The translations under genes were made by a program, and so were the position numbers. Shown here piece after piece: positions 14,273-59,369 of a stretch of 64,000 nucleotides of DNA; positions within the stretch are counted from its first letter, which is position 1; every line of letters starts with the position of its first letter. Source of the stretch: Patescibacteria group bacterium (lineage in GTDB: Bacteria > Patescibacteriota > Microgenomatia > Levybacterales > UBA12049); assembly GCA_038064195.1 (NCBI GenBank), contig JBBTTO010000002.1:205356-269355 (forward strand). The letters are read 5' to 3'. The notes beneath the pieces are model-generated. The model had not been told where the DNA came from, made no database searches, and saw nothing but the letters and a program-made list of their open reading frames with translations.

Positions 14273-16390
14273 TTGATTTTAGTTATGGCAGATACATCAC
14301 GACAAGTTCCTCTTGAAAGAATTCGCAATATCGGTATTATTGCGCATATTGACGCGGGCAAAACCACGACAACTGAACGCATTCTTTTTTATACCGGTCG
14401 TACCTATAAAATCGGTGATATTGATGAAGGTAATACCCAAATGGACTGGATGGAGCAGGAAAAAGAACGCGGGATCACGATCGTTTCAGCAGCGACGACT
14501 ACTTTTTGGAAAGACTATCGTATCAATATAATTGATACCCCGGGGCACGTTGACTTCACGGCAGAGGTAGAGCGCTCCCTCCGCGTTCTTGATGGAGGCA
14601 TTACCGTACTGGACGCTGAGGAAGGTGTGCAGTCTCAGTCAGAAACCGTCTGGCGTCAGGCAGACAAGTATAAAGTTCCCCGTATTTGTTTTGTCAATAA
14701 AATGGATAAATTAGGGGCTGATTTTTTGGCTACTGTCAAAAGTATTGAAGACCGACTCGGCGCGAATCCTGCCATCATGGTCATCCCCATTGGTGCTGAG
14801 AACACCTATGTCGGGAATGTCGATTTACTTACCAGAAAGGCGATTCGTTGGAGCTCCGAAGAACTTGGTGCGAAATTTGATGTCAGTGATGATATTCCTG
14901 AAGAACTAAAGGCGCAGGTAGAAGAATATCGTTCAAAGCTTATTGAGAAAATTTCAGAGACAGATGACGCTTTACTTGAAAAATATCTGGCCGGGGAAGA
15001 GCCGACTGTTGATGAGCTTAAGAAAGCACTTCGGGCAGCTGTTATTGCCTATAAATTAGTTCCGATTTATGCAGGTACTTCTCTTCGCAATAAGGGTGTC
15101 CAGCCGCTTTTGGATGCAGTCATAGATTATCTTCCGTCCCCTGTCGACTTAAAAGAGGTAAAAGGTATCCATCCCAAGACAAATGAGCCAGAGGTGCGTC
15201 AGCTCGTTCCTGCGGAGTCTTTCAGTGGTCTCGCATTTAAGATTCAGAACGATCCGCATGTCGGGAAACTTACGTATTTCCGTGTTTATTCAGGCAAAAT
15301 AGAAGCCGGTTCGTATGTTTTTAACAGTTCTAAAGGAGTTAAAGAACGTGTCGGGCGCTTACTGATGATGCATGCAAATCAAAGAGAGGAAATAAAAGAA
15401 GGTTTTGCCGGAGAGATTGTGGCAGTTGTAGGACTAAAAGACACAGGTACAGGAGATACACTCTGTGATGAGGCAAAGCCGATTGTCTTGGAGAAAATTT
15501 CTTTCCCTGAGCCGGTTATTTCACTGGCGATTGAGCCCCAGACTAAGTCAGATCAGGAAAAGTTAGGCTATGCCTTAAAACGCCTGACGGAGGAGGATCC
15601 GACATTCTCAGTAAAAAGCAATCATGAGACAGGTCAAACAATCATCTCAGGTATTGGTGAGCTACAGCTTGAAGTTATGGTAGACCGTATGAAAAGGGAA
15701 TTTAATGTCTTGGCTAATGTCGGTGCACCTCAAGTAGCTTATAAAGAAACGTTCACTGAAGAAGTCAAAGCAGAGGGTAAATATATTCGTCAGTCCGGAG
15801 GACGAGGACAATTCGGACATTGTTGGCTCAGAATTGAGCCAAAAACCCGCGGTGAGGGAAATGAGTTCGTCAGTGAGATTAAGGGAGGAGCTATCCCTCA
15901 AGAATTCGTCAAAGCAGTTGAGAAAGGAGTCTGGGAAACACTTGAAAATGGAGTCCTACTTGGGTATCCGATTGTTGATGTCAAGGTCGCATGTTATGAC
16001 GGGTCCTATCATGAAGTTGACTCGAGTGAAGTAGCCTTTAAGATTGCTGCTTCTCAGGCTATCCAGGCAGCCTCCAAGAAAACACAGATGAATCTGCTTG
16101 AGCCTATCATGAAGGTTGAAGTGACGACTCCATCAGAGTTCATGGGAGATGTGATGGGTGATCTTTCCAGTAAACGCGCACAAATTATTGGCACTGAGGA
16201 ACGCGCTCGAGCTACCATTATTAACGCGATGGTTCCTTTGTCTGAATTAACAGGCTATGTAACAACGCTTCGCTCGATGAGTAAAGGTCGAGCAAGTGCT
16301 TATGTTGAGCCGAGTCACTATGACATCGTTCCCCGTAACATCGTCGACCAGATGGTCGCCAAATCCACTTTCACCGGCCGCGTTGAATAA
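14273..16390 (+). CDS. fusA: elongation factor G
   Basis: [23 protein letters not shown] and NKMDK GTPase motifs, full-length 705 aa EF-G. Confidence 0.95.
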
Positions 16391-16485: not shown

Positions 16486-16758
16486 GTGAGTCACGAAGAA
16501 GTCGACGAATGGTACCGGAAAAATCAGCCAAGGGAAGAAGTCTGCTCCGGATGCAATGGCACCGGCAGGATGGACTCAATGACCGACTCCGGATCGTTCA
16601 CCTGCACCTGGTGCGGAGGCAGCGGGAAGCCGAACGAGTATTCTCGGCGATTCGGTCACGGGACTGTAACCCGGTGTGCTCACTGCCACGGGACGGGACA
16701 GATTGACTCAATCGCTGATGCCGGTAAATTCCCCTGTCCCTACTGCAGCCGCCGATGA
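16486..16758 (+). CDS. small DnaJ-CR-like zinc-finger protein (three CxxCxGxG repeats plus a CxxC)
   Basis: GTG start. CSGCNGTG, CTWCGGSG, CAHCHGTG and CPYC spaced like the DnaJ cysteine-rich domain. Encoded in a roughly 400-bp segment of markedly higher GC than its surroundings. Confidence 0.6.
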   Translation: MSHEEVDEWYRKNQPREEVCSGCNGTGRMDSMTDSGSFTCTWCGGSGKPNEYSRRFGHGTVTRCAHCHGTGQIDSIADAGKFPCPYCSRR

Positions 16759-16966: not shown

Positions 16967-18076
16967 ATGAAGAAGAAAATCCGGATTGGTATTTTGTTTG
17001 GTGGGCAGTCGGCCGAGCACGAGGTCTCGATCCAGTCGGCAAAGAATGTTGTGGCTGCTTTAGATAAAAGCAAATACGAGGCAGTCCCGATTGGCATCAC
17101 TAAAAAAGGCAAATGGCATAGTTTTACCCAAGCGCAATTCAATCTCCTTGCTAGCAAAAACTATCAGGCTCTCCCAGAGAAGGTAGCTAGTGAGAGCTTG
17201 CCTATCGTTTCAGTAAAGCAAGGCAACCTTGACGTTGTTTTTCCCATTTTGCATGGGCCGATGGGTGAGGATGGAACGGTTCAGGGCTTGTTGAAATTAA
17301 TGGATATACCTTTTATCGGAGCGGATGTACTCGGCTCAGCCTTAGGGATGGACAAAGATGTCATGAAGCGGTTGCTGCGTGATGCAGGACTACCAATTGC
17401 AAAGTTTTTAGTATTTCATAAAAAGAATAATACCGTCATTCTGGCAAACGGAGTGCGTCCAGAATCAACAAAAGATAGATCCTGGACAAGCCAGGATGAC
17501 GAATTGTTTTTATTTGTCAAAAAACAATTAGGACTTCCTTTTTTTGTAAAACCTGCTAATCTTGGTTCCTCAGTCGGAGTTTCAAAAGTTCATAGTTCAG
17601 AGGAGTTTGATAGAGCAATAGATAAAGCATTTAGTTATGACAGAAAAATTCTTGTTGAAGAGGGAATTGACGCACGCGAAATTGAGTGTTCGGTCTTAGG
17701 TAATGAAGAAAAAATTGCATCAGTTCCTGGAGAAATAATTCCAAGCCATGAATTTTATGACTATGAGGCAAAGTATATTGATGAAGATGGTGCAATACTT
17801 GATATCCCTGCTAAATTAAACAAAAAACAAGTAAAAGAGATCCAGGAGATGGCCATTAAAGCTTGCCAAGTTCTCTGCGTGGATGGAATGGCGAGGGTTG
17901 ATTTTTTTATAGACAAAAAAACAGACAAGATCTATATCAATGAGATTAATACCACTCCTGGCTTTACCAATATCAGCATGTATCCCAAGCTTTGGGAGGC
18001 AAGCGGTATCCCGTATGCAGCCTTAATTGATCGATTAATAAGCCTGGCACTCGAAAGACATAAAAAAAGAGTATAG
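16967..18076 (+). CDS. ddl: D-alanine--D-alanine ligase
   Basis: IGILFGGQSAEHEVS and HGPMGEDGTVQGLLKLMDIPFIG, with an ATP-grasp C-terminal half (EINTTPGFT). Confidence 0.9.
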   Translation: MKKKIRIGILFGGQSAEHEVSIQSAKNVVAALDKSKYEAVPIGITKKGKWHSFTQAQFNLLASKNYQALPEKVASESLPIVSVKQGNLDVVFPILHGPMGEDGTVQGLLKLMDIPFIGADVLGSALGMDKDVMKRLLRDAGLPIAKFLVFHKKNNTVILANGVRPESTKDRSWTSQDDELFLFVKKQLGLPFFVKPANLGSSVGVSKVHSSEEFDRAIDKAFSYDRKILVEEGIDAREIECSVLGNEEKIASVPGEIIPSHEFYDYEAKYIDEDGAILDIPAKLNKKQVKEIQEMAIKACQVLCVDGMARVDFFIDKKTDKIYINEINTTPGFTNISMYPKLWEASGIPYAALIDRLISLALERHKKRV

Positions 18077-18106
18077 CTAGGCCTATAGCTAAAATATGAT
18101 ACAATA

Positions 18107-19288
18107 GTGCCACCTATGGCACGTAAAAGAATAACCGAACACAAAGCCAAGGAGCTCTTTTTGGAATACCTCGGTCTCCCCTACCAGGGAAGAGAAGTGA
18201 GAGGGAATGACTTCTCCACCATTTCTGATCTTGACTCTGGAACTACCTATGTTGTTAAAGTTGATCAGGGTATCAAGAAAAGATTTAAATTAGGCTTAGT
18301 TGCACTTGATATCTCGGTAGATAAGCTCCCTCATGAAATAAAACAACTTGCTGACAAAGGCTATTCTCAGTTCATTGTTGAGCCCTTTCGTACACATGTT
18401 CAATCTCAGGAGCGGTATGTAGCAATTCAGAGAACTCGTGAAGGGTTTACGTTTCTTCTCTCTACACAAGGAGGAGTCAGTATTGAAGAACACAGTGATT
18501 CATTAAAAACATTCCCTCATACACAAATCGTCAAAGCGGCAGAATTCATTGGGCTCACACAAGAGCTGCTTGAGAAGATGCTTAAGGCAATGGATGAATA
18601 TCATTTTTCATTCCTTGAGGTTAATCCACTTATCCATACTGGTGATGATATCTATTTGCTTGATTTAGCTGTTGAGGTTGATAGTGCAGGCGAGTTCTTT
18701 GTTAAAAATAGCTGGACACACAAAGATTTTGTGGCAGATGGTAGTGGTAAGACAGATGAGGAAAAAGCTGTTGAAGAGTTATCTGATAAAAGCCAGGCAT
18801 CATTCCGACTTGCCGTCCTCAACCCAAATGGGTCAATTTTTATGCTCCTTTCAGGCGGAGGAGCAAGTATCGTTCTGGCTGATGAGGTATATAACCAAGG
18901 TAAAGGTAAAGAGCTAGCTAACTATGGAGAATATAGCGGTAATCCGAATGCTGAGGAAACATATCTTTATACAAAGCAAATCTTACGTTTATTACTTTCT
19001 TCTCAGGCAAAAAGAAAAGCGCTTATCATTGCCGGCGGAGTAGCTAATTTTACTGATATTCGGGTGACTTTTAAGGGCATCATCCAGGCTCTTGATGAAG
19101 TTAAAAATGAACTAAAGGCTCAAGGTGTAAAGGTTTTTGTGCGCCGTGGTGGGCCTTATCAGGAAGAGGGTTTAGCTACTATGAAAACCTATCTTGAAAA
19201 AGAGGATTTACTAGGAACGCTTGCAGGTCCGGAGATGATGTTGACTGATGTTGTTTCACAAGGACTTAAGGAGGTTACTCATGCTTGA
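18107..19288 (+). CDS. ATP-citrate lyase subunit A-like (ATP-grasp / citryl-CoA synthetase beta-like)
   Basis: VVKVDQGIKKRFKLGLV, FIVEPF, YLEVNPL, NPNGSIFMLLSGGGASIV, ELANYGEYSGNP, ANFTDIRVTFKGII and VFVRRGGPYQEEGL match, block by block, the N-terminal half of ACLY/AclA as I remember it. They match SucC much less well. Confidence 0.75.
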   Translation: MPPMARKRITEHKAKELFLEYLGLPYQGREVRGNDFSTISDLDSGTTYVVKVDQGIKKRFKLGLVALDISVDKLPHEIKQLADKGYSQFIVEPFRTHVQSQERYVAIQRTREGFTFLLSTQGGVSIEEHSDSLKTFPHTQIVKAAEFIGLTQELLEKMLKAMDEYHFSFLEVNPLIHTGDDIYLLDLAVEVDSAGEFFVKNSWTHKDFVADGSGKTDEEKAVEELSDKSQASFRLAVLNPNGSIFMLLSGGGASIVLADEVYNQGKGKELANYGEYSGNPNAEETYLYTKQILRLLLSSQAKRKALIIAGGVANFTDIRVTFKGIIQALDEVKNELKAQGVKVFVRRGGPYQEEGLATMKTYLEKEDLLGTLAGPEMMLTDVVSQGLKEVTHA

Positions 19289-21071
19289 TATTAACAATCT
19301 CAAACAACAACCAACCAATATCCTTTTTCTGGGAAGCCATCCCGGTATCATCCAGTCTATTTTGGACTTTGATTACCTGGCAGGTAAATCCGAGCCCAGT
19401 GTAAAAGGAATTATCGCGGGTGGAAGAAGGTTTGAAAGGTTTTTTTTCGGAAAGAAAGAAATTCTTCTCCCTGTCTCCCCCACCGTCTCAGGGCTTTCTG
19501 AGTCAATACGATCAGAAATAACCTATTTTTTTAATACGACTTCAGGCAGGCGCGCGTTTTCATCAACGCAAGAAGCATTTGAAGTATTGCCTAAAGTACT
19601 GGGCGGAATTATTTTTGCTGAGGATGTGCCTGAGGAGCATGCAGCCAAGCTTTATCAGCTTGTTGAAGCTAAAAACAAATTTGTGATAGGGCCGGCCAGC
19701 GTCGGTCTGTTATTGCCTAATATTCTCAAATTAGGGGCAATCGGTGGGGTTGATACCAGACAACTCATTGCCTCAGATGTTTTTATACAGGGTAATGTGG
19801 CTGTTTTCTCGGCCTCCGGGGGAATGACTAATGAGATTATCAATATAGTCGCGAAGCAAGGAAGAAGGCTCAGTTTTGCCCTTTCCTTTGGAGGCGATCG
19901 TTTCCCGGTCCTTACACCCCAAAGCGCGTTTGAAATTGCAGAAAATGATCCGCAGACAGAAACGATTATTTATTTCGGTGAACTCGGGGGTACGGATGAA
20001 TATGATGTGGTAAGGCTTCTTAAAGAGAAGAAAGTAAACAAGCCGGTCCTGTGCTACATCGGAGGTGTGGTCGCAGACTTGTTTGAGACTCCTCCGCAAT
20101 TTGGTCATGCTAAGGCGTTAGCCGAAACAGGAGAGGAAACAGCACGCGCTAAACGAGATGCCTTACGGGAGGCAGGCGCGCAGGTAGCTGAGTCGTTTGG
20201 TGAATTTGTTGAACTGATTGGTAAGATCAAAACTCGTGATAAAATCAACACAAAGGATTATACTCTTCTTATGAAAGATCTTTCTGATCGACAGCATGCT
20301 TTGATTACCAGCAGTATTTCCAGTGATGAAAAAGGAGATGTCAAAATTCTGGGCGAGGATTTGCTGGAATTTGTCCAGGCGAGATCATTTGCTGGTATTG
20401 TCGCCTCATTGTTCTTAGGTAAAGCAAAAGTCAGTAAGGATCTTGAGGACTTTGTCGATTTTACCCTACGCCTCCTGGTCGATCACGGTCCGTATGTTTC
20501 AGGAGCTGTCAATACAATTATTACAGCGCGAGCAGGCAGAGACCTCTCATCTTCACTTGCAGCCGGACTTTTGACAATCGGACCTCGTTTTGGCGGAGCG
20601 ATTAATCAGGCGGCTATTAATTGGCTTGAGGGTGTAACGAAGGGTGTATCAGCCCACGATTTTGTCGAGGAATTCGCAATCCGTAAAGAGTATATATCCG
20701 GTATTGGACATCGTAAATACAGGGTCGATCTTCCCGATCCGCGAGTCAATAAGCTTCTCGAGTTCTCAGAAAGTCTTAAGGTCAAACGTTTTACATCGTT
20801 TGCAAAAGACGTTGCCGCAATCACCACGGCTAAGAAAGGTAATCTCATCTTAAACGTTGATGGGACAATTGCCGCTGTTTTACTTGATCTTTTATCTGAA
20901 AAAGAAGGTATGACAGATCAGGAACTGGATAAAATCACCCGGACAGAATTTTTTAATGCTCTTTTTGTTTTGTCACGCAGTGTCGGTTTTATTGCCCATT
21001 TTCTTGATCAGAAGAGGCTTGATGAGGGACTTTTTCGCCTTGGGGAAAAGCATGTCACAACCCTTGATTAA
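19281..21071 (+). CDS. ATP-citrate lyase subunit B-like (CoA-binding plus citrate-synthase-like domain)
   Basis: Start taken at the MLDINN Met, which overlaps the aclA-like stop. CoA-binding/SucD-like N-domain with the phosphohistidine-loop-like QFGHAKALAETGE. C-terminal GIGHRKYRVDLPDPRV resembles the citrate-synthase/ACL GHRxK..DPR motif. Confidence 0.75.
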   Translation: MLDINNLKQQPTNILFLGSHPGIIQSILDFDYLAGKSEPSVKGIIAGGRRFERFFFGKKEILLPVSPTVSGLSESIRSEITYFFNTTSGRRAFSSTQEAFEVLPKVLGGIIFAEDVPEEHAAKLYQLVEAKNKFVIGPASVGLLLPNILKLGAIGGVDTRQLIASDVFIQGNVAVFSASGGMTNEIINIVAKQGRRLSFALSFGGDRFPVLTPQSAFEIAENDPQTETIIYFGELGGTDEYDVVRLLKEKKVNKPVLCYIGGVVADLFETPPQFGHAKALAETGEETARAKRDALREAGAQVAESFGEFVELIGKIKTRDKINTKDYTLLMKDLSDRQHALITSSISSDEKGDVKILGEDLLEFVQARSFAGIVASLFLGKAKVSKDLEDFVDFTLRLLVDHGPYVSGAVNTIITARAGRDLSSSLAAGLLTIGPRFGGAINQAAINWLEGVTKGVSAHDFVEEFAIRKEYISGIGHRKYRVDLPDPRVNKLLEFSESLKVKRFTSFAKDVAAITTAKKGNLILNVDGTIAAVLLDLLSEKEGMTDQELDKITRTEFFNALFVLSRSVGFIAHFLDQKRLDEGLFRLGEKHVTTLD

Positions 21072-21511
21072 TAGATAAAGGGGATAAAGCGTTTGGTTTT
21101 TCTTTGATAATCCTCGTAACCCTTCTTAAAATACTTCACAAGGAGTGTTTCTTCATAGTTAGCTTTTATAAAGAGATCACATATAAGCAGAAGAGAAGCA
21201 AATATTCTAGGGAAAGAAGAATTATTGAAGAGAAGGCCAATCGCAACGAGTAAAACGGCTGTGTACATCGGATGACGGATGAACTCGTATGGTCCGTCAG
21301 TGACGAGATTGCTATCGGGAGCGACATCAGCAGTAATCTGAATAGTTGTAATCCGCATCGACCAAATTGCCCAGAGCCCAAGCAGTATACCCAGGAGCTC
21401 ACAAATTCCCGCAAGAGAACTAAGAGGAAGCACAGGCCCACTTAAGAAAAGATAGATAAGCAGCAGCGCTTGAAGGAGGACGAGGAAAAGGGATTTAGGG
21501 TTGCGGGACAT
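21068..21511 (-). CDS. isoprenylcysteine carboxyl methyltransferase / PEMT-family membrane methyltransferase
   Basis: About 4 TM segments. C-terminal FIRHPMYTAVLLVAIGLLF...EE..L motif typical of the ICMT/PEMT family. Confidence 0.7.
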   Translation of the reverse strand: MSRNPKSLFLVLLQALLLIYLFLSGPVLPLSSLAGICELLGILLGLWAIWSMRITTIQITADVAPDSNLVTDGPYEFIRHPMYTAVLLVAIGLLFNNSSFPRIFASLLLICDLFIKANYEETLLVKYFKKGYEDYQRKTKRFIPFIY

Positions 21512-21600: not shown

Positions 21601-22254
21601 ATGAAAAGAGTAGTTGGCATATTCGCGCATCCTGATGATGAGGCTCTCGGTCCCTCAGGCACCTTAGCTCTTCTTGCCAAAGATCACGAGGTTTATCTTC
21701 TCTGTGTCACCAGTGGCGAGGCTGCAGGCAGGACCCCGGAGGAGAAGCGAGTTATTGGTGAGACACGCAGAAAGGAAGTAGTAGACTCTGCCAGGATCAT
21801 TGGGATTAAAGAAGTTTTCTTTCTCGGTTACGAAGATGGCTGTCTCTGTAATAGCGTGTATCATCAATTAGCCGGAGAGATTGGTAAAAAGATAGAAGAA
21901 CTTCGTCCTGAAGTGCTGCTTACCTTCGAGATTCGGGGAGTGTCAGGGCATATTGATCACATTACCACTTCTCTTGTGACGACATTTGTTTTTGGAAAGT
22001 ATTCGTTTATTAAAAAGCTTATGTACTATGTCACTACTAAAAAGGAGAGTGAGATGATGAAGGACTACTTTATCTATTTTCCTCAAGGGTTTGAACGCGA
22101 TGAGGTAGATGAAGTAATTGATATCTCTAGCGTATGGGATACAAAGATTAAGGCAATGCATGTCCATCAGTCACAGATTAATGATGTGGAGAGAATCCTG
22201 CGAAATAAATCTGGACTTCCCCGTGAAGAGTACTTCCTCGTTAAAACAAGGTAA
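21601..22254 (+). CDS. PIG-L/LmbE-family N-acetylglucosaminyl deacetylase
   Basis: VGIFAHPDDEALGPSGTL matches the zinc-binding HPDDE signature of LmbE/MshB/BshB-like deacetylases. Confidence 0.75.
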   Translation: MKRVVGIFAHPDDEALGPSGTLALLAKDHEVYLLCVTSGEAAGRTPEEKRVIGETRRKEVVDSARIIGIKEVFFLGYEDGCLCNSVYHQLAGEIGKKIEELRPEVLLTFEIRGVSGHIDHITTSLVTTFVFGKYSFIKKLMYYVTTKKESEMMKDYFIYFPQGFERDEVDEVIDISSVWDTKIKAMHVHQSQINDVERILRNKSGLPREEYFLVKTR

Positions 22255-22297: not shown

Positions 22298-23386
22298 ATG
22301 AAAAAAATATTGGTGCTTCTCATCATAATAACCTTGGTTGCAACTTTTTATGTTGCTTTGAGAGCTTTTCGTACAAAACTCGATAGAGTTCTGTCTACAC
22401 AGCCTGTTCAAACATTTACTCAACCTACCCCTACTCCAACCAGTCCTGCAGCAAAGGAAATTGACCGGACACTCTTTGTTCCTTACTGGAGTTTAAAAAA
22501 TGCGTCTCCCCTTCCTCCTTATCACACTCTTGTTTATTTTGGTGTCCAAGTAGGAGAAAAGGGGCTTGATACGACAGATGACGGGTATAAAAATCTAGGT
22601 AGTTTTGTTCGTGATGCGGGCACGAGTGAGACTGTCTTGACTGTCCGTATGCTTGACAGTACGACTAACTTTGCCATTCTTAAAGATAAGGCTGTTCAGG
22701 AGTCACTTATCAAAGACTCAATTGCTTTAGCTCAGAAATATCATTTTAAAGGGATTTTGCTTGATATTGAGCTTTCGGCATTACCTTTCTCTTCCCTTGT
22801 TGATCAAATTGATATATTTAACACAAAATTTGCCAGGGCTAGTCACGCGAAGGGCTTTACGTATGCGGTGACTGCCTATGGAGATACTTTTTATCGCCTA
22901 CGTCCTTTTGATATCAAAAGACTTGCTCAGGACGTAGACGGGATGTATGTAATGGCCTATGATTTTTCCAAGGCAAAGGGGAATCCCGGTCCGAATTTCC
23001 CGTTATCAGGAAGTAGCACCTATGGCTATGACTATGAGCATATGCTTAATAATTTTGCGGATAGCGTCCCCCTTAAGAAATTGACGATTATTTTCGGAAT
23101 GTATGGGTATGACTGGGCAGTTGATGATCGCGGTATTGCTCAGGCAGTAGGAGAGGCTGTCGCTCTCAAAGATATAAAGGCCAACATTATTGATAGTTGT
23201 AAGCACTTAGAATGTAATTGGGAGAGAGACAGTGTTTCTGCTGAAACAAAGGCTATCTATAAGGATAGTGATACTGGTAAGCACACTGTCTGGTTTGAAG
23301 ACGAACAGTCGGTCAAGCGTAAAGAGGATTATCTTAAAAGTCATGGTGTAGGCTCTTTTGCCTACTGGGCATACTCATATTTCTGA
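22298..23386 (+). CDS. secreted TIM-barrel glycoside-hydrolase-like protein (GH18-like, catalytic motif incomplete)
   Basis: N-terminal signal/TM and a Pro/Thr linker. FKGILLDIE resembles the end of the GH18 DxxDxDxE motif but lacks the upstream Asp residues. Confidence 0.35.
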   Translation: MKKILVLLIIITLVATFYVALRAFRTKLDRVLSTQPVQTFTQPTPTPTSPAAKEIDRTLFVPYWSLKNASPLPPYHTLVYFGVQVGEKGLDTTDDGYKNLGSFVRDAGTSETVLTVRMLDSTTNFAILKDKAVQESLIKDSIALAQKYHFKGILLDIELSALPFSSLVDQIDIFNTKFARASHAKGFTYAVTAYGDTFYRLRPFDIKRLAQDVDGMYVMAYDFSKAKGNPGPNFPLSGSSTYGYDYEHMLNNFADSVPLKKLTIIFGMYGYDWAVDDRGIAQAVGEAVALKDIKANIIDSCKHLECNWERDSVSAETKAIYKDSDTGKHTVWFEDEQSVKRKEDYLKSHGVGSFAYWAYSYF

Positions 23387-23560: not shown

Positions 23561-24739
23561 ATGGCAGCATTTAATCGCAACAAACCACACGTTAATATCG
23601 GTACCATCGGTCATGTCGATCACGGTAAGACGACAACGACAGCAGCTATTGCTACTGTTTTGTCTAAGCATGGCGGTGGAGAAGCCAAAAAATACGAAGA
23701 TATTGATAACGCGCCAGAGGAAAAAGCTCGTGGTGTTACTATCAATATTTCCCACATCGAGTATGAGACTGAAAAGCGTCATTATGCTCACATCGATGCT
23801 CCGGGTCATGCGGATTATATCAAAAACATGATCACAGGTGCAGCTCAGATGGATGGAGCAATTCTCGTTGTATCAGCACCAGACGGTCCAATGCCTCAAA
23901 CCCGTGAACACATTCTTCTTGCCTATCAGGTCGGTGTCCCGGCAATCGTTGTCTACCTTAATAAGTGTGACATGGTTCAGGATGAAGAACTACTGGATCT
24001 TGTTGAGATGGAAGTTCGTGAGCTTTTGACCAAATACAAATATCCAGGAGACACTACTCCTATTATTCGCGGCTCATCCCTTAAAGCCCTTGAAGGTGAT
24101 CCGGTCTATGAAGAGAAGATCATGGAGCTTATGAAGACAGTGGATGACTATATCCCGACTCCAGAGCGTGATCTTGATAAACCATTCCTGATGCCTGTTG
24201 AGGATGTTTTCTCAATCAAAGGCCGAGGTACGGTTGTTACCGGCCGTGTTGAGCGCGGAGTTGTTAAAGTTAACGAGCCGATTGAGATTGTCGGTATGAA
24301 AGCTACAACTAGCTCAGTTGTAACAGGAGTTGAAATGTTCCGTAAACAGCTTGATCAGGGGCAAGCAGGAGATAATGTCGGGCTTCTTCTCCGCGGTGTT
24401 GAGAAAGAAGATGTAGAGCGTGGACAAGTCCTCGCTAAGCCGGGATCAATCACTCCTCATACAGAATTTGAAGCTGAAGCATATATTCTTACCAAAGAAG
24501 AGGGTGGTAGGCACACGCCTTTCTTTAAAGGCTATCGTCCTCAATTCTATATCCGCACAACTGATGTTACCGGTGAGACTGTTCTTCCTGACGGTGTGGA
24601 GATGGTTATGCCTGGAGATACTACCAAAATGACTGTAAAACTCATTGTTCCGGTTGCTCTTGAAGAAGGTGTCCGATTTGCTATCCGTGAGGGTGGTAGA
24701 ACAGTCGGAGCTGGTGTTATCACCAAAATCTTAAAATAA
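23561..24739 (+). CDS. tuf: elongation factor Tu
   Basis: [17 protein letters not shown] and NKCD GTPase motifs. 392 aa. Confidence 0.95.
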
Positions 24740-32858: not shown

Positions 32859-33347
32859 ATGGCAAGTATGGATTATCAAAATAAGGGAGAATATATTGAG
32901 CACGTTGTGAAGATCAGCCGTGTTTCTAAGAAGACCAAAGGTGGCAATAAAGTTGGCTTTTCTGCGTTAACTGTAGTTGGAGATGGAAAGGGCAAAGTAG
33001 GTGTTGGTCTTGGTAAAGCTCCCGATGTCTCAGGTGCAGTGCGAAAAGGGATCTTGCTTGCGAAAAAGCATATGATCTCAGTCCCGCTTGTTAAAGGGAC
33101 AATTCGTTCACGGGTTGATGTCAAAGTCGGAGCTGCGCGTGTTATGCTTAAGCCGGCACCTCCCGGAAGTGGAATTATCGCAGGCGGCGCAGTACGAAGC
33201 GTGGTAGCTGCAGCCGGCATTACCAATATCTCCAGTAAAGTGCTTGGCAGTAACAATAAAAACGGCAATGTTACAGCCACCCTTGAGGCTCTCCGTATTC
33301 TGTCTGAGATGCAGGAGAAAAAAGAGGCAGGGTTAAAAAATAAATAA
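32859..33347 (+). CDS. rpsE: 30S ribosomal protein S5
   Basis: ...VKISRVSKKTKGGNKVGFSALTVVGDGKGKVGVGLGKA... Confidence 0.95.
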   Translation: MASMDYQNKGEYIEHVVKISRVSKKTKGGNKVGFSALTVVGDGKGKVGVGLGKAPDVSGAVRKGILLAKKHMISVPLVKGTIRSRVDVKVGAARVMLKPAPPGSGIIAGGAVRSVVAAAGITNISSKVLGSNNKNGNVTATLEALRILSEMQEKKEAGLKNK

Positions 33348-33350
33348 TAT

Positions 33351-33818
33351 ATGGAACTTAATCAACTACCATCAATTAGTCATAAAAGTAAAAGACGTCT
33401 TGGTCAAGGCCACGGGTCAGGTCGCGTCAAAACGGCCGGCCGGGGAACAAAAGGCCAAAAAGCCCGTTATGATATTCCGCTTGATTTTGAAGGTGGAGCG
33501 CTGCCGCTTATCAAGAGACTTCCTTTTCTCCGCGGAAAAGATCGTAATAAATCAATCTATGCAAAGCCTATCGTCCTTGATGTAGCCAGCCTGAACAGGC
33601 TTCCTCAGAATACCAAGGTTACCATAGAGTCTTTAGCAAAGCATCAGATCGTCGATAAATTGGCGGCGGAAACGCGTGGTGTTAAGATTTTGGGAAATGG
33701 TGACGTGAATGTTGCGTTGGTTATACAGTTACCTATTTCAAAAAGCGCTGAAGAAAAAGTCATTAAAGCAGGTGGGCGTATTGAACCTGTCACAACGAGT
33801 GTTAGTGTAACTGCATGA
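33351..33818 (+). CDS. rplO: 50S ribosomal protein L15 (it follows rpsE directly; no rpmD/L30 gene)
   Basis: ...[25 protein letters not shown]... Confidence 0.9.
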
Positions 33819-42512: not shown

Positions 42513-42851
42513 ATGGGGATATTTATTTATTTGCTTGTAAACGGATTTACTATTTTTGTCGCGGCGCAAGTACTCTCAGGTGTGCATGTCAATAATTTTT
42601 TTACGGCCATAGTAGTAGCTGTTATTCTTGGAATCGTGAATACTCTCATCAAGCCTATTCTTGTACTGCTTACGCTTCCGTTGACAGTCCTTACATTCGG
42701 ACTGTTTGCCTTCATAATCAACGCCTTTATGGTTCTTGTGGTCAGTAGAATAGTTCCCGGTTTTGAAGTAGACGGATTTTTGTGGGCGTTACTTTTCAGC
42801 CTGGTTATTGCAATTATATCCTCGTTCCTGAATTCGTTATTGAAGAGGTAA
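42513..42851 (+). CDS. DUF360 / phage_holin_4_2-family small membrane protein
   Basis: 112 aa with four TM helices. GIFIYLLVNGFTIFVAAQVLSGVHVNNFFTAIVVAVILGIVNTLIKPIL matches my recollection of the YvlD/DUF360 family. Confidence 0.6.
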   Translation: MGIFIYLLVNGFTIFVAAQVLSGVHVNNFFTAIVVAVILGIVNTLIKPILVLLTLPLTVLTFGLFAFIINAFMVLVVSRIVPGFEVDGFLWALLFSLVIAIISSFLNSLLKR

Positions 42852-45736: not shown

Positions 45737-46669
45737 TTGCGTCATAATAAATTAGTTACTATGTTTTTATTTGACAAGAAAAAACAAGCGGGAACACAGA
45801 GAAGCTTACAGCGATCGTCAATAAAGAAAAATCAGCCTCATTTCATCACGAGATTTCCCATCGGGAAAATTATTTTAGTATTGGGTGTTATCTTTCTTAT
45901 TCTTCTGCTTATTACGCCGGGAAGTTTTATGGGCAAATACTCAGATAGTCTACCTGGTAGTGGATCAAACATAAATGGCAGTCCTGATCTAGAAACAGCC
46001 AATACTCAGCAACTTACCCCCGAACAGCTTCAATCTGAGAAGACTCAGTCTAAGGATTTTTTTATCGGGCCAATTAGGCTATCTCATTCTTCATATATTA
46101 ATGAACAATTAGACTCATTCTCACAAGAGTCAAAAGATTCATCTTCTCAAACTGATGAGTCCCAAAGTAAAGGGGATCAACAGTTTTCTCTTCAAGATAT
46201 TCTTATAAAGCCCTTGGATTATCTCGCCTCTCTAGGATACACAATACGAGTGTCTGTCAGCAATAGTAGTAAAAAAACCACGTTTTATAAATTGGTTGAC
46301 AGTATCTCAAGATACTATGTCAGTTATTCACATTTTCCACACTACGATGTCAGTGCAGAAGACGGCTATAGCTGGGTGACTGAGATGGTCCAGGCTAATG
46401 AAATGTCAGGGACATATGAATATGTCCTTCGCACAACTGCCCCGATGTCATATTGTGGAACAGTTCAACAAAATGGCTACTGTTACAAATCAGATGAGGC
46501 AAATGCGATTCTCTATGTAAGAATAGATGAGCCTTCAGGTCAGGATATTTGCTCTGATCAGGCATTATTCCTTCTCTGGTCTTCACAGGATAATAAAACA
46601 GGAGAATTATGTATGGATCAGGAGCCTATACAGCTCGGAGGATTTAAGTTCTTACCGATCCGTAATTAA
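45737..46669 (+). CDS. membrane-anchored secreted hypothetical protein with a Cys-containing C-terminal domain
   Basis: N-terminal TM (IILVLGVIFLILLLITPG), a Ser/Gln-rich linker, and a C-terminal domain with several Cys residues (YCGTVQQNGYCY...DICSDQ...ELCMDQ). Confidence 0.4.
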   Translation: MRHNKLVTMFLFDKKKQAGTQRSLQRSSIKKNQPHFITRFPIGKIILVLGVIFLILLLITPGSFMGKYSDSLPGSGSNINGSPDLETANTQQLTPEQLQSEKTQSKDFFIGPIRLSHSSYINEQLDSFSQESKDSSSQTDESQSKGDQQFSLQDILIKPLDYLASLGYTIRVSVSNSSKKTTFYKLVDSISRYYVSYSHFPHYDVSAEDGYSWVTEMVQANEMSGTYEYVLRTTAPMSYCGTVQQNGYCYKSDEANAILYVRIDEPSGQDICSDQALFLLWSSQDNKTGELCMDQEPIQLGGFKFLPIRN

Positions 46670-47095
46670 GTGGGGATAATCATTAATCTTTTTAAGAGTC
46701 TTGGTAAATATGTCAGAGTACTCTAGGGGAGGAAGCTTAGTAAAGGTGATCCACCGATACTCGGAGTGATCAGGGCTTAGTTTGATGCTCTCAGATTCTG
46801 TTTGGAGACAAAGATAGACGATCCTTATCACCTGCATGGAAGTATCACTTACTGAATGTCCATTAAGTACAGTAAGAGGATAGAGAGTTCCTGTTTTTAA
46901 ACCGGTCTCTTCAGAGATCTCTCTTTTTATTGCTTGCTGTGGATCCTCACCTAAATCTACAGCTCCTCCCGGAAGCTCCCAAAGATTTGGGTGGGTGTCA
47001 TGAGCTGCTCTTTTTATGATCAGGAACTCTTCTTTTTTGATTTGATTTAAGATCAATCCGTAGACGGCAATTCTTTGCTTGCTAATATCCATCAC
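46652..47095 (-). CDS. NUDIX hydrolase
   Basis: Nudix box GGAVDLGEDPQQAIKREISEETGL. Confidence 0.8.
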   Translation of the reverse strand: MMDISKQRIAVYGLILNQIKKEEFLIIKRAAHDTHPNLWELPGGAVDLGEDPQQAIKREISEETGLKTGTLYPLTVLNGHSVSDTSMQVIRIVYLCLQTESESIKLSPDHSEYRWITFTKLPPLEYSDIFTKTLKKINDYPHLITDR

Positions 47096-47631
47096 AGTAG
47101 TATAACTATATTAAATCTTGAGAACAAGTTCAGGAGAAGAGGAGAGCGGACTAATACGTTTTCAACTTCACTGATACCTGTTTGGGTGTCGATTCGTGAC
47201 AGTATCTCAACAATAACTTCATCTCCCGAGAGAATTTTTTTCAACCATGGTTCTGTGTCGTCAAACATATCGCTATAAGGGATATCGTCAAAAGTAAACC
47301 AGCGTGGATAGACTCCCGGAGTAGATCTGGGTTCACCACTAAAGCGTCTGCACAGGAAAACAGTGATTGTAAGTGTTTCCTGTCTCACGTCTTTCTCTTG
47401 TAGATCGTAGTAGTGAATGATACCTACTTTTTCTAAGTCGGTTTCGTTAACGTGAATTTTTATCTCCTCATAGAGTTCTCTTATAGCAGCCATTTCCGGA
47501 CTTTCTCTCATCTCCGTATATCCGCTGATACCGTTCCAGGTGATTTTGTTTTGACGGTAGTTACTTTCTGCTAAAAGGATCCTGTCATCATCAATAAGAA
47601 ATGTAATGACAGCGTTACGTCTGTCAGTCAT
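47092..47631 (-). CDS. NUDIX-family hydrolase (divergent Nudix box)
   Basis: ISGYTEMRESPEMAAIRELYEEIKI approximates GX5EX7REUXEEXGU. 4-nt overlap with the downstream NUDIX gene. Confidence 0.55.
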   Translation of the reverse strand: MTDRRNAVITFLIDDDRILLAESNYRQNKITWNGISGYTEMRESPEMAAIRELYEEIKIHVNETDLEKVGIIHYYDLQEKDVRQETLTITVFLCRRFSGEPRSTPGVYPRWFTFDDIPYSDMFDDTEPWLKKILSGDEVIVEILSRIDTQTGISEVENVLVRSPLLLNLFSRFNIVILL

Positions 47632-50805: not shown

Positions 50806-51654
50806 ATGCGTATTTTACAAACAAATGGTTGGGAAGATTATGAACTCCTTGATAGCGGAGAGGGTTACCGCCTGGAGCGATTTGGGGAGTACACTATTGC
50901 CAAACCTGATCCTCAGGCAATTTGGCAACGAGGTCTCCCAATATCTGTATGGAAGAAAGCTGACGCAACTTTTGAGAAAGAAGGCTGGGTGCGAAGGACA
51001 GATGTTCCTGAGAAATGGTTAGTGCACTATAAGAAGATTTCTTTCTATACCAAGCTCACTCCTTTTAAGCATACCGGAGTTTTCCCTGAGCAACATCTTC
51101 ATTGGGATTTTATCAGTCATGCAATTACACAAAGTAAGCGAGAAGTTAAGGTTCTCAATCTCTTCGCCTATACAGGGATTGCCAGTCTTATTGCCGCTTT
51201 TGCTGGGGCAGAAGTAACACATGTTGATGCTTCGCGACCGGCTATCGGTTGGGCAAGAGAAAATCAAGAAGCGTCCAAGCTGGCAGACAAACCAATCAGG
51301 TGGATTTTAGATGACGTAGTGCGATTTGTCGAAAAAGAAGTAAGGCGAGGAAATACGTATGAAGGAATTATTATGGATCCCCCAGTTTATGGACACGGGC
51401 CGGGTGGAGAGTTATGGGATTTCCCAAAAAATTTCCCGGAATTAGTCAAGCTTTGTAGTCAGTTATTATCAGATAAACCACTTTTTGTCATCGTAAACGC
51501 ATATGCAATTTCCGCCTCAAGTATAATGCTTGAGAATGTTTTACGGGATCATCTAACAAAAGGAAAGGTTGAGGTTGGTGAATTAGCTATTCAGGAGAGT
51601 AGCGGTAAAAGACTATTGTCTACCGGAATTTTTGCCCGCTGGTCAGCTGAGTAG
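50806..51654 (+). CDS. class I SAM-dependent RNA methyltransferase (RlmI/RlmK-like)
   Basis: ...VLNLFAYTGIASLIAAFAGAEVTHVDASRPAIGWAREN...IIMDPP... gives SAM-binding motifs I and IV (DPP). Confidence 0.65.
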   Translation: MRILQTNGWEDYELLDSGEGYRLERFGEYTIAKPDPQAIWQRGLPISVWKKADATFEKEGWVRRTDVPEKWLVHYKKISFYTKLTPFKHTGVFPEQHLHWDFISHAITQSKREVKVLNLFAYTGIASLIAAFAGAEVTHVDASRPAIGWARENQEASKLADKPIRWILDDVVRFVEKEVRRGNTYEGIIMDPPVYGHGPGGELWDFPKNFPELVKLCSQLLSDKPLFVIVNAYAISASSIMLENVLRDHLTKGKVEVGELAIQESSGKRLLSTGIFARWSAE

Positions 51655-52173
51655 CTTGGCTGCGACAAGAGCGGCAAGAGTGGCATTTGCCCTCCATTCT
51701 CCCCGCGCTATTTCTTTTTTAAGTTCTGAAACAGTAATAACTCTCTGGGTCAGACTCTCATTCGGATCAAAGTTAGTCTCCTGGGTTTTGGTGACACCGG
51801 TAGCTTTTATGAAATGAGCCCTATGAGAATCCTTTGTAGTATAATCATAATACTCTCCTAGGTTTTCCCATTCTCCTCCTGTATATCCTGTCTCCTCCGC
51901 GAGCTCTCGTTTGGCGGACTCTAAAGGATCTTCACCTTTTTCAATATGACCTGCAGGGAGTGTGTGAATGATTTTATTAATGGCGTATTTATACTCATCA
52001 ATTGTTACGATATTATTGTCAGTATCCAGTGCGACAATCATAGAATAATTGGGTTTTTCAATGACAGAGTAGTCATCGATGACATTCCCATTAGGGAGTT
52101 TTACTTTGTCCTCGTAGACTTTGAGGAATTTTGTATCAATTAACGTTTTTCTATCTAAACGTTTCCAAGACAT
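51643..52173 (-). CDS. NUDIX hydrolase (ADP-ribose pyrophosphatase-like)
   Basis: Nudix box ...AGHIEKGEDPLESAKRELAEETGY... Confidence 0.8.
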   Translation of the reverse strand: MSWKRLDRKTLIDTKFLKVYEDKVKLPNGNVIDDYSVIEKPNYSMIVALDTDNNIVTIDEYKYAINKIIHTLPAGHIEKGEDPLESAKRELAEETGYTGGEWENLGEYYDYTTKDSHRAHFIKATGVTKTQETNFDPNESLTQRVITVSELKKEIARGEWRANATLAALVAAKLLS

Positions 52174-55885: not shown

Positions 55886-56878
55886 ATGAAATGTATGCCG
55901 GTTATTAGTATCGATCATTTATCAAAATATTATCAGGTACATAAGAAGGAGCCGGGCTTTGTAGGCTCACTTAAGTCTCTTGTCGCACGTAAATATGAAG
56001 TCGTTAAAGCTGTGGATGATATCTCTTTTACAATTGATGAGGGAGAGATTATCGGATTTATCGGCCCAAACGGCGCAGGCAAGACAACAACACTAAAGTG
56101 TCTCTCAGGTCTTCTCTACCCGACTAAAGGTAGAGTCAGTGTCTTAGGTCACACACCTTTTAATCGTAAAGCGGTTTTTCTCAAGCAAATCTCACTCGTC
56201 ATGGGACAGAAAAACCAGTTGTGGTGGGATTTGCCGGCCATGGACACATTTCTTCTAAATAAAGAAATATATGAGATCCCCAAAGCTCGCTTTGAGGAAG
56301 TTGTTGAGGATCTGGCGACTCGCCTGGCAGTTAAAGATATTCTGCATGTCCCTGTTCGCAAGCTATCTCTGGGCCAGCGGATGAAGATGGAGCTCATTGC
56401 TGCCCTCATTCACTCCCCCAAAGTGCTTTTTCTTGACGAGCCGACGATAGGACTTGATGTCGTGATGCAGCAAACAATACGGGAGTTCCTCAAGGAATAC
56501 AACGAAGCCTATAAAGCCACAATTATTCTGACCTCTCATTATATGGGGGATGTAGAGGCACTTTGTAAAAGGGTAATTGTCATCAATTTCGGCAAGATTC
56601 TCTATGACGGATTACTCTCTGACTTAGTTAAAGAGCATGCTCCTTATAAAGTGATTAAAGTAGTCCTTTCCAAAAAAATTGATCAGGAGAAATTAGATAG
56701 TTTCGGCGAGACTCGAAGTCTTAACTATCCTGAATGGGAAGTCCGGATTAAGCAAAAAGATGCTAACGAGACGGCTGCAAAATTACTCAAAGAATTACCG
56801 GTTGAGGATATAACGATTGAAGACCCGCAGATAGAGGATGTCATCGCCGGATTTTTTGTAGCAAACAAAAAAAACTAA
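55886..56878 (+). CDS. ABC transporter ATP-binding protein (ABC-2/DrrA-like with a C-terminal extension)
   Basis: Walker A GPNGAGKTT, signature LSLGQRMK, Walker B LFLDEPT, and a C-terminal domain of about 100 aa. Confidence 0.9.
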   Translation: MKCMPVISIDHLSKYYQVHKKEPGFVGSLKSLVARKYEVVKAVDDISFTIDEGEIIGFIGPNGAGKTTTLKCLSGLLYPTKGRVSVLGHTPFNRKAVFLKQISLVMGQKNQLWWDLPAMDTFLLNKEIYEIPKARFEEVVEDLATRLAVKDILHVPVRKLSLGQRMKMELIAALIHSPKVLFLDEPTIGLDVVMQQTIREFLKEYNEAYKATIILTSHYMGDVEALCKRVIVINFGKILYDGLLSDLVKEHAPYKVIKVVLSKKIDQEKLDSFGETRSLNYPEWEVRIKQKDANETAAKLLKELPVEDITIEDPQIEDVIAGFFVANKKN

Positions 56879-56907
56879 TTTTGTTTTACTTTTGACCTTT
56901 ATTATGT

Positions 56908-57705
56908 ATGCGCTATCTCAGAATCTTCCTCATTCATTTCCACAGAGTTATTGAAAACAGAAGCAGATCAGTTGTTTGGACACTTTTATCAATTTTTAAT
57001 CCCCTTGTCTATCTGTGCTTCTGGTTTGCTGTTTACAAAAGTAGTGGTAAAGTAGTTGGAGATTTATCCTTATCTGAACTTGCTTCATATTACCTCCTTC
57101 TAACATTTGCCGGGTCACTTCTTATGGCACATATTGATGAATCAGTGGCTGAAGAAGATATTTACGAAGGAGGTTTGGTGAAATATATTGTTCGGCCTTT
57201 CTCTTATTTTTGGGATCTCTATTTTGGTGAGCTTGGATGGCGAATCTTTCAGGGAGGACTAAGTATTATTGTATTTGTTATTTTTAGTTATTTTCTTCAT
57301 TCATTATCGCATTTTGTCAGTTCTCCCATATTAATACTGCTAACTTTGTTATCAATTATATTGGCATACACTTTGTCTTTTATCTTCAGAATGATCTTAG
57401 GTTTTACTGCTTTTTGGGTTACCGAATTTAGGGGCGTTCAAAATGTGGCAGAAACTATCATACTGGTCTTTGCTGGATTTGTAGTTCCTCTACAGTTTCT
57501 ACCAGTATTCATGCAAAAGATAAGTTATATCTTGCCTTTTGCCTATATGATATATTATCCAATTCTTGCTATCCAGGGGAAATTAGACTTTAGTCAGATG
57601 GTTAAAGTCCTGTCGACTCAGGCTGTATGGATAGTTCTCCTAAGTCTTCTTTATCAATATATGTGGAGAAAAGGCCTAAAGCTATTCACAGGAGTGGGAC
57701 AATGA
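56908..57705 (+). CDS. ABC-2-family transporter permease (paralog 1 of 4)
   Basis: 265 aa with 6 TM helices, immediately after the ATPase. Confidence 0.7.
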   Translation: MRYLRIFLIHFHRVIENRSRSVVWTLLSIFNPLVYLCFWFAVYKSSGKVVGDLSLSELASYYLLLTFAGSLLMAHIDESVAEEDIYEGGLVKYIVRPFSYFWDLYFGELGWRIFQGGLSIIVFVIFSYFLHSLSHFVSSPILILLTLLSIILAYTLSFIFRMILGFTAFWVTEFRGVQNVAETIILVFAGFVVPLQFLPVFMQKISYILPFAYMIYYPILAIQGKLDFSQMVKVLSTQAVWIVLLSLLYQYMWRKGLKLFTGVGQ

Positions 57706-58496: not shown

Positions 58497-58498
58497 TC

Positions 58499-58540
58499 AC
58501 GAATTGATGCGAATTCTAATAATCCGAATTAATACGAATT
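58499..58540. promoter_or_regulatory. array of four direct CGAATT repeats between permease genes 2 and 3
   Basis: caCGAATTgatgCGAATTctaataatcCGAATTaataCGAATTt read directly. Spacing is 11, 15 and 10 nt. Confidence 0.4.
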
Positions 58541-58573
58541 TATTCAAGTAAAAGTTAAAACAGATATTTAGTT

Positions 58574-59368: not shown

Positions 59369-59369
59369 T

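Follow-up and report, generated by a model that had tools for sequence, protein, structure and literature searches.

A two-subunit ATP-citrate lyase in Levybacteria and related bacteria, and its linkage to cell-envelope genes

ATP-citrate lyase (ACL) is the subject of this report. A pair of overlapping genes predicted to encode a complete, intact heteromeric ACL of the AclA/AclB type was found in a genome of the order Levybacterales (Patescibacteria group bacterium; GTDB lineage Patescibacteriota, Microgenomatia, Levybacterales, UBA12049). The genes lie in a 64,000-nucleotide stretch of contig JBBTTO010000002.1 (assembly GCA_038064195.1, positions 205,356 to 269,355, forward strand). This whole stretch is called the window, and positions are counted from its first letter. 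We favor, with moderate confidence, the reading that this complete enzyme cleaves imported citrate and thereby provides housekeeping acetyl-CoA and oxaloacetate, the acetyl-CoA being used chiefly to acetylate amino sugars of the cell envelope. The identity of the enzyme is argued from its domains, its full-length similarity to solved ACLs, its conserved residues, and the position of a clade of candidate phyla radiation (CPR) sequences within the ACL family. The envelope role is proposed because the pair is recurrently linked to glmS, murB, ddl, GlmU-like, hexapeptide and Acyl_transf_3 genes. Housekeeping status is proposed because its placement by fusA and tuf is conserved, and because the clade comprises more than 120 sequence clusters and 335 metagenome matches. 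Neither the enzyme itself nor the scavenged-citrate reading is new, since there is a precedent in Gracilibacteria from 2019 and some homologs are already annotated as ATP citrate lyase or synthase. The envelope-gene context is the part that looks new.

Gene pair and enzyme identity

Open reading frames (ORFs) of the window and their translations were compared with Pfam, NCBIfam and PDB sequences by HMMER. Two ORFs on the + strand, at 18107-19288 (393 aa) and 19248-21071 (607 aa as the longest ORF), make up the pair. A preliminary description of this DNA had proposed an ACL-like enzyme here, and all the motifs that it quoted are present in the two translations. The first gene codes for the small subunit (AclB or ACLY-A type), which has an ACL-type ATP-grasp and a citrate-binding domain. 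Its true start is probably the ATG at 18116 (18116..19288, + strand, 390 aa) rather than the alternative GTG at 18107 (393 aa), because the ATG is the start called in another assembly of the same genome. The second gene codes for the large subunit (AclA or ACLY-B type), which contains CoA-binding and CoA-ligase domains and a fused C-terminal citrate-synthase-homology (citryl-CoA lyase) module. For the large subunit the ATG at 19281 is the probable start (19281..21071, + strand, 596 aa), because a Shine-Dalgarno sequence, AGGAGG (19268..19273, + strand), is found 7 nt upstream within the 3' end of the small-subunit gene, the resulting overlap is 8 nt, and the length agrees with that of homologs (594-601 aa). 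A GGAGG similar to this Shine-Dalgarno is found in the close relatives L018 and L019. The 8 nt shared by the large-subunit start and the small-subunit stop are ATGCTTGA, and by this arrangement the two ACL genes are predicted to be translationally coupled.

The domain content is that of an ACL. Pfam detects Citrate_synth_N (101 bits, cutoff 83) and Citrate_bind (190 bits, cutoff 26.8) in the small subunit, and Ligase_CoA, Succ_CoA_lig and a C-terminal Citrate_synt domain (residues 380-597 of the 607-aa ORF) in the large subunit. NCBIfam citryl-CoA lyase models match the same C-terminal region as Citrate_synt. The best solved match of both subunits is ACLY-A/B of Methanosaeta (Methanothrix) concilii (6hxi_A, E 1.4e-61; 6hxi_B, E 1.3e-104), aligned nearly end to end. 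Human ACLY gives E-values of about 1e-60 with the small and 6e-103 with the large subunit, and Chlorobium limicola AclAB gives 3e-38 and 1e-61, respectively. Full-length similarity to solved ACLs already settles the predicted ACL fold.

One conceivable error would be to have mistaken for an ACL a succinyl-CoA synthetase (SucCD), some other acyl-CoA synthetase or the two-enzyme citryl-CoA synthetase/lyase system (CCS/CCL), and we give this next to no weight. The JGI name of some homologs is 'succinyl-CoA synthetase alpha subunit', and the CoA-ligase core is common to SucD. However, NCBIfam SucC (beta) models score 45-55 bits against cutoffs of 370-376 and SucD (alpha) models 104-108 bits against cutoffs of 336-353. 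Together with the ACL-specific domains, namely Citrate_bind and the fused citrate-synthase module, these sub-cutoff scores rule out SucCD. E-values of 1e-61 and 1e-104 for the small and large subunits with the best ACL compare with 7e-4 and about 1e-24 for succinyl-CoA synthetase and with 3.5e-13 and 1.1e-22 for the citryl-CoA synthetase chains (6hxq). A CcsAB/Ccl enzyme of the Hydrogenobacter type is ruled out by these far weaker CCS E-values and by the lyase module, which is a separate polypeptide in CCS/CCL and is fused to the large subunit here. The preference of the preliminary description for ACL over SucCD is supported by domains, residues, phylogeny and scores alike, and the citrate-binding and citrate-synthase-like domains that it proposed to look for with HMMs were found.

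Catalytic residues were mapped by HMMER alignments to human ACLY, with residue lists taken partly from two papers on the ACLY mechanism (PMC10115795; PMC11365397). In the large subunit E114, S179-G180-G181, H276, H402, H477, D527 and R566 (human E599, S663-G665, H760, H900, H975, D1026 and R1065) are invariant in 121 sequences at 60-98% identity, single outliers in the sequence P0001 aside. The catalytic His and the citryl-CoA lyase Asp that the preliminary description had singled out (H276 and D527) are among them. The position equivalent to R976 is R in 73 of the 121 sequences and K in 47. The rest of the list follows the ATP and citrate contacts of ACLY structures. By human numbering, K58, D60, R66, K68, E118, N203 and D216 of the small subunit are identical in the window and 11 clade relatives, as are G281-283, S308, G309, N346, F347, T348, R378 and R379. 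The enzyme is conserved across the CPR clade and under strong purifying selection.

The substitutions at catalytic positions of P0001 (G181E, R566H and others) were set aside as frameshift artifacts. This sequence comes from L013 (ENA ERZ1300416 NODE_2, 171 kb), which is the same genome as the window, with 99.84% identity over 13 kb and 15 indels. As a result of these indels ddl is broken into two ORFs and the large subunit goes out of frame in its C-terminus. At about 5x coverage, the indels have the look of assembly errors and not of pseudogenes.

Distribution, phylogeny and the phospho-histidine loop

The large subunit has homologs in more than 120 clusters (90% identity) at 60-98% identity, and the named ones are Candidatus Levybacteria. 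The clade ACL matches 335 metagenome stretches. Among closed or near-closed genomes, OZ246394.1 (1.61 Mb) and JAJDCG010000001 have this ACL. An exhaustive search of 1.84 billion representatives returned a compact family of 144 clusters (50% identity) at E <= 1e-30. The enzyme is therefore not a one-off and not the unusual acquisition that had been supposed at first; some of its homologs already carry ACL annotations. Existing names include ATP citrate lyase or synthase for some homologs and 'hypothetical protein', 'succinyl-CoA synthetase alpha subunit' or 'citrate/2-methylcitrate synthase' for others; these latter names hide the enzyme. GTDB species genomes with the large subunit are Levybacteria, Woesebacteria and Patescibacteria, plus three metagenome-assembled genomes (MAGs) labeled 'uncultured Gammaproteobacteria'. 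These three (L002, L004 and L005; CAZYWG010000001, CAYYLC010000001 and CAYVFE010000001) have an ACL of the CPR clade with its GHAKA loop, described below. Their fusA, which adjoins the ACL, is 71-76% identical to that of the window. Because a CPR-clade ACL stands next to a window-like fusA, the Gammaproteobacteria labels are probably wrong.

A neighbor-joining tree of large subunits was built from 62 ACL-family sequences (578 columns, 100 bootstraps). The window falls in a clade with 100% bootstrap support together with Levybacteria, Woesebacteria, one Dojkabacteria sequence and other bacteria. A sister group at weak support (53%) includes a Saccharibacteria 'ATP citrate synthase'. Chlorobiaceae (AclA P0192), Nitrospinota, DPANN, other archaeal and eukaryotic ACLs lie outside the CPR clade. 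As to deep origin, that is, an archaeal versus a bacterial donor and any link to eukaryotic ACLY, all deep nodes of this tree have less than 60% support. The phylogeny suggested in the preliminary description was realized on the ACL side, where it gave a fully supported CPR clade beside Chlorobiaceae, Nitrospinota, archaeal and eukaryotic ACLs; SucD and CCS, too distant for inclusion, were compared by scores alone.

The phospho-His loop of the clade reads QFGHAKA. It contains H276 (human His760), and Lys278 (window about 20112-20114) replaces the second Gly of GHAGA. All 121 clade members have GHAKA, as do Woesebacteria, while QFGHAGA is kept in M. concilii, human, Bathyarchaeia, Thermoplasmata, Riflebacteria and Saccharibacteria-type relatives. 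One nested representative (P0122) has GHAGA. Other representatives of the ACL family have GHAWA, GHAAA or GHSGS, and because the loop varies in this way the His, not the Gly, is taken as the defining phospho-His feature. A Lys that is fixed in every clade member at a canonical Gly could in principle mean that the substrate (perhaps another hydroxy-polycarboxylate) or the chemistry is different, the enzyme being ACL-like but no citrate lyase. We regard this as very unlikely, since the citrate-contact residues (equivalents of G309, N346, F347, T348 and R379) and the citryl-CoA lyase residues are unaltered and the same loop position is also variable elsewhere in the family. For an enzyme family of medical importance, the GHAKA loop offers a natural variant next to the catalytic phospho-histidine.

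Several known ACLs can be compared with the clade enzyme. ACLY-A/B of M. concilii (6hxi, 6znw), its best solved match, also consists of two subunits with the same domain order, and all catalytic residues are common to both, including the Asp mutated in 6znw. It differs in sequence (~37-40% identity), in chain length (421 and 631 aa versus 390 and 596 aa), in its GHAGA loop, and in its position in another part of the tree, where deep nodes are unsupported. AclA-AclB of C. limicola and other Chlorobiaceae (6hxj; P0192) is likewise a bacterial ACL of heteromeric type and agrees in domains and catalytic residues. However, it is a much weaker match (E 3e-38 and 1e-61; P0192 36% identity) and serves autotrophy by a complete reductive tricarboxylic acid (rTCA) cycle. 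The human and animal ACLY (6uuz, 3mwd) is about as similar as the archaeal enzyme and its catalytic residues are identical, but its polypeptide is fused into one chain that includes a regulatory linker, the acetyl-CoA it makes is used for lipids and protein acetylation, and the tree gives it no specific kinship to the CPR clade.

The closest published precedent is the two-subunit ACL of a Gracilibacterium that has no TCA cycle (PMC6851277, mBio 2019). There, scavenged citrate was proposed to be turned into acetyl-CoA and oxaloacetate, an affinity to archaeal sequences was noted, and ACL was said to be 'rarely detected in CPR'. The Gracilibacteria enzyme has the canonical GHAGA site, two candidate citrate transporters were identified, and no link to the cell wall was made. 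Compared by description rather than by sequence, both are two-subunit CPR enzymes open to a scavenged-citrate reading. Unlike it, the enzyme described here is common across a Microgenomates/Dojkabacteria clade, has the GHAKA loop and is linked to murB, glmS and ddl. A 2025 study found aclAB enriched in Saccharimonadia MAGs (PMC12577380), and a 2022 preprint noted misannotated CPR sequences in trees of citrate-cleavage enzymes. The literature search returned nothing specific on ACL in Levybacteria or Microgenomates, and several papers list ACL just as an rTCA marker. It also returned no report of the breadth of the enzyme in Levybacteria and other Microgenomates, its fusA/tuf placement, the GHAKA loop, the envelope-gene linkage or the apparent leaderless promoter.

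Gene neighborhood and proposed role

In the window the pair stands between fusA (EF-G; 14273..16390, + strand) and tuf (23561-24739), with ddl (D-Ala-D-Ala ligase, identified by Pfam; 16967..18076, + strand) directly upstream. The pair comes right after fusA, or after fusA and one or two further genes, in L001-L005, L013, L018, L019, L025, L026 and others, and it precedes tuf and the S10 operon wherever a locus reaches that far. This placement next to fusA is kept in relatives at 58-98% identity; other clade members have the alternative order greA-[ACL]-murB. The GC content of the pair (0.42-0.44) is like that of the rest of the window. The preliminary description had spoken of an island that splits fusA from tuf. 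The pair does lie between these genes, but a recently acquired horizontal island is rejected by its ordinary GC content and by a placement conserved down to 58% identity.

The neighbors of the pair were surveyed because ddl lies upstream in the window, murB lies downstream in relatives, and L006 has a wall-gene cluster. With 80 additional clade loci from metagenome contigs, 94 loci were analyzed without a prior panel of genes, by ORF calling, blastp families, counts by relative position and Pfam searches on family representatives. Counted within three genes of the pair, MurB is the commonest neighbor (29 loci, 28 of them at +1 or +2). It is followed by fusA (18), GlmS and a 413-aa protein without annotation (9 each), HhH-GPD (8), GreA, dCTP deaminase and a 564-aa protein without annotation (7 each). 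Ddl, a PEMT-like protein and an archaeal-type phosphoenolpyruvate (PEP) carboxylase are each found in 6 loci, the last always at -3. RmlA/GlmU-like nucleotidyltransferase, GH18, PIG-L, epimerase and Acyl_transf_3 families occur in 5 loci each, and aminotransferase class I/II (always at -1), ManC-like nucleotidyltransferase, VanW and NUDIX in 4 each. Sugar nucleotidyltransferases combined reach 9 loci.

Core peptidoglycan/UDP-GlcNAc genes, a set that includes one nucleotidyltransferase family mixing GlmU-like and RmlA-like members, fill 49 of 276 positions (18%) at +-1-2 and 20 of 359 (5.6%) at +-4-7. This is an odds ratio of 3.7 (Fisher p 1.2e-6, kinship among genomes ignored). Such a gene lies within two positions of the pair in 44 of 76 informative loci. 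The envelope link recurs on both strands in at least five unrelated gene orders, among them Ddl-[ACL] (L013, L018, L019, L025 and L026), [ACL]-MurB, Acyl_transf_3-[ACL]-GlmS and [ACL]-ManC-GlmS-VanW. The Woesebacteria locus L006 has the order GlmS-NagB-like-PP2C-[ACL]-CofD-x-GlmU-like-Mur ligase-MurA-PBP. In the distant relative L021 the pair belongs to a polysaccharide cluster, and the genes immediately before it encode a fused oxidoreductase/DegT aminotransferase and a hexapeptide acetyltransferase. Linkage to peptidoglycan/UDP-GlcNAc genes is the strongest contextual signal, and it was missed by the preliminary description even though ddl was listed there.

A smaller share of the loci suggests a connection with central carbon metabolism, through PEP carboxylase, aminotransferase or 2-oxoacid:ferredoxin oxidoreductase. 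A fixed block of archaeal-type PEP carboxylase, dCTP deaminase, the 564-aa protein and [ACL] occurs in one subclade (L061, L072, L074, L080, L085 and L086) and brings ACL together with a second enzyme that produces oxaloacetate. In L060 (8654-11249) and L066 (7974-9914) a GHAKA-clade ACL is followed directly downstream by a convergent two-subunit 2-oxoacid:ferredoxin oxidoreductase. The archaeal-looking L024 also has this pairing of ACL and oxidoreductase, which is the classical one.

By homology with solved ACLs, the small subunit would bind ATP through its ATP-grasp domain and would also bind citrate. His276 of the large subunit would be phosphorylated and hand the phosphate to citrate, and attack of CoA on the citryl-phosphate would yield citryl-CoA. 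Citryl-CoA would then be split to acetyl-CoA and oxaloacetate with the involvement of Glu114 and the citrate-synthase-homology module (His402, His477 and Asp527). The context suggests that the enzyme would run in the cleavage direction on imported citrate derived from a host or the environment. Acetyl-CoA would be spent chiefly on N- and O-acetylation of amino sugars in peptidoglycan or envelope glycans by GlmU-type, hexapeptide and Acyl_transf_3 acetyltransferases. Oxaloacetate would go to aspartate or other precursors, as supported by the aminotransferase at -1 (4 loci) and the PEP carboxylase at -3 (6 loci). The preliminary description had proposed acetyl-CoA and oxaloacetate from scavenged citrate as the role, which is reasonable by analogy with the other CPR lineage for which it was described (PMC6851277).

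More tentatively, the GHAKA enzyme of Microgenomates and Dojkabacteria may be a lineage-wide, vertically inherited housekeeping enzyme that turns host-derived citrate into acetyl-CoA for acetylation of wall and surface amino sugars. If so, it would be a bacterial analog of the eukaryotic cytosolic citrate-to-acetyl-CoA shuttle, and the likeness to human ACLY would extend to its setting, a compartment that has no pyruvate-to-acetyl-CoA route and uses imported citrate. Citrate would then be a key currency from host to episymbiont, with ACL as a point of dependency. The proposal gives an uncultivated lineage a candidate nutrient, citrate, and a candidate sink, envelope amino-sugar acetylation, and could help cultivation.

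Several points weigh against cleavage of imported citrate for envelope acetylation. The ACL reaction is near equilibrium, so that sequence does not fix its direction. No citrate transporter was recognizable in the scanned window ORFs or in the recurrent neighbor families, and the invariant Gly-to-Lys change beside the phospho-His may affect kinetics. The commonest envelope neighbors, MurB, GlmS and Ddl, do not use acetyl-CoA themselves, and the acetyl-CoA users (GlmU-like, hexapeptide and Acyl_transf_3) are rarer among the neighbors. Adjacency in related genomes is phylogenetically non-independent, which makes the p-value optimistic. No TCA gene besides ACL was found among the scanned ORFs, as the preliminary description had reported, but this evidence covers the 64-kb window only, and pyruvate:ferredoxin oxidoreductase (PFOR), pyruvate dehydrogenase (PDH) or acetyl-CoA synthetase may be encoded elsewhere in the genome. 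A 2-oxoacid:ferredoxin oxidoreductase adjoins ACL in the clade loci L060 and L066, and PFOR is the predicted route to acetyl-CoA in one complete Microgenomates genome (PMC7143001).

Alternatively, ACL may be a general node of central carbon metabolism or citrate fermentation. Acetyl-CoA would then go mainly to acetate with recovery of ATP, and oxaloacetate to pyruvate or aspartate. Wall genes would adjoin the pair because small genomes have inherited this gene order, without functional coupling. The ACL of Gracilibacteria was interpreted in this way (PMC6851277). It accommodates the loci with PEP carboxylase, aminotransferase or 2-oxoacid:ferredoxin oxidoreductase instead of wall genes, and the ~42% of informative loci without a core peptidoglycan gene within two genes of the pair. 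Inheritance alone, however, hardly explains an envelope link found in at least five gene orders and on both strands, and a non-exhaustive survey of the annotated neighbors turned up no acetate kinase, phosphotransacetylase or ADP-forming acetyl-CoA synthetase. We consider this view rather unlikely.

The same enzyme could also work in the opposite direction, that of an ATP-yielding citrate synthase (acetyl-CoA + oxaloacetate + ADP + Pi -> citrate + ATP + CoA), to supply glutamate synthesis with citrate or to conserve thioester energy. The ACL of Desulfobacter postgatei is reported to be such an ATP-yielding citrate synthase and shows that an ACL can run physiologically in the direction of synthesis, but there it is part of a complete oxidative cycle. 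A reaction close to equilibrium would allow this. PEP carboxylase, an oxaloacetate maker, stands three genes upstream in 6 loci, and the oxidoreductase of L060 and L066 is a possible acetyl-CoA maker. The wall needs D-Glu and glutamine, so a reverse reaction would be compatible with the envelope link, and PFOR is present in some Microgenomates (PMC7143001). Yet the window and the annotated neighbor families showed neither aconitase nor isocitrate dehydrogenase, CPR bacteria generally have no complete TCA cycle (PMC7143001), and excretion of citrate would bring no energy gain after the ATP forgone through PEP carboxylase. Net synthesis is to our mind improbable. An rTCA cycle with autotrophic CO2 fixation, as in Chlorobium or Nitrospira, is more improbable by far. 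ACL is the usual rTCA marker gene in annotation pipelines, and the archaeal-looking L024 shows the classical combination of ACL and oxidoreductase. However, no 2-oxoglutarate synthase (2-oxoglutarate:ferredoxin oxidoreductase), fumarate reductase or other rTCA gene occurs among the scanned window ORFs, the CPR clade is apart from the Chlorobiaceae and Nitrospinota ACLs, and the neighbors in the 94 loci are mostly envelope genes, not cycle genes. CPR bacteria studied so far have no autotrophic pathways (PMC7143001). A large CPR clade that has ACL without the cycle would give false autotrophy calls where metagenome pipelines use ACL as an rTCA marker.

Promoter-like signals and other features of the window

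An extended -10-like element, TGATACAAT, lies at 18097..18105 (+ strand), 10 nt before the small-subunit ATG, and is a putative promoter of the pair's own. Of the 10 relatives compared, most have a TAnAAT-like box that precedes the ATG by 7-12 nt, several with TG upstream; those with a -10-like box at the same position are L001, L003-L006, L014, L016, L018 and L019. No Shine-Dalgarno is present before the small-subunit ATG in the upstream sequence. Because the -10-like box is so near the ATG and no Shine-Dalgarno accompanies it, the arrangement suggests transcription of aclBA from a promoter of its own into a leaderless or near-leaderless mRNA. Consensus scans for promoters and terminators around the operon gave match counts equal to the shuffled expectation. 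A palindrome across the start codon, GTGCCACCTATGGCAC (18107-18122), was considered as a regulatory hairpin and dropped, as it is absent from L018 and L019.

The ddl gene upstream of the pair is conserved in the window's subclade and is a candidate functional partner of ACL through peptidoglycan precursors. Downstream, a PEMT/ICMT-like membrane methyltransferase (21068..21511, - strand) is convergent with the large subunit, overlaps it by 4 nt and is a conserved neighbor in the subclade. It is followed by a PIG-L family de-N-acetylase (21601-22254, + strand) and a GH18 glycoside hydrolase (22298-23386, + strand), both conserved downstream neighbors; all three were identified by Pfam. PIG-L and GH18 travel together downstream of ACL in the window, L019, L025, L026 and L049. 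A possible function, by analogy with archaeal chitin and chitobiose deacetylase pathways, is that of an amino-sugar salvage pair. Between fusA and ddl, a 90-aa ORF (16486-16758, + strand) contains two DnaJ-type CXXCXGXG zinc-finger repeats (Anti-TRAP and DnaJ_CXXCXGXG matches). GC content is locally higher around it, L013 has no gene call there, and L018 lacks it.

The content of the window is CPR-like, as the preliminary description had it, with a ribosomal-protein operon, TIM, an LCP protein, PilO, ddl, glycosyltransferases, NUDIX hydrolases, RecA/RecX and an ABC-2 transporter. L30, already noted as absent, is missing from the ribosomal operon, where S5 ends at 33347 and L15 starts at 33351 (32859-33818), in agreement with published features of CPR ribosomes (PMC9297842). 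The window has three NUDIX hydrolases (46652-47631 and 51643-52173), and NUDIX genes are also found near ACL in relatives (L001, 12774-13199; L019, 11798-12253; L021, 634-1161; L022, 8156-8767). A role as CoA or nucleotide-sugar pyrophosphatase would fit this setting. At 55886-60152 an ABC ATPase gene is followed by four consecutive ABC-2 (ABC2_membrane_6) permease genes, an unusual fourfold tandem. Just past the ribosomal-protein genes, among unannotated ORFs, a 112-aa protein (42513-42851) matches Phage_holin_4_2 (E 8e-32).

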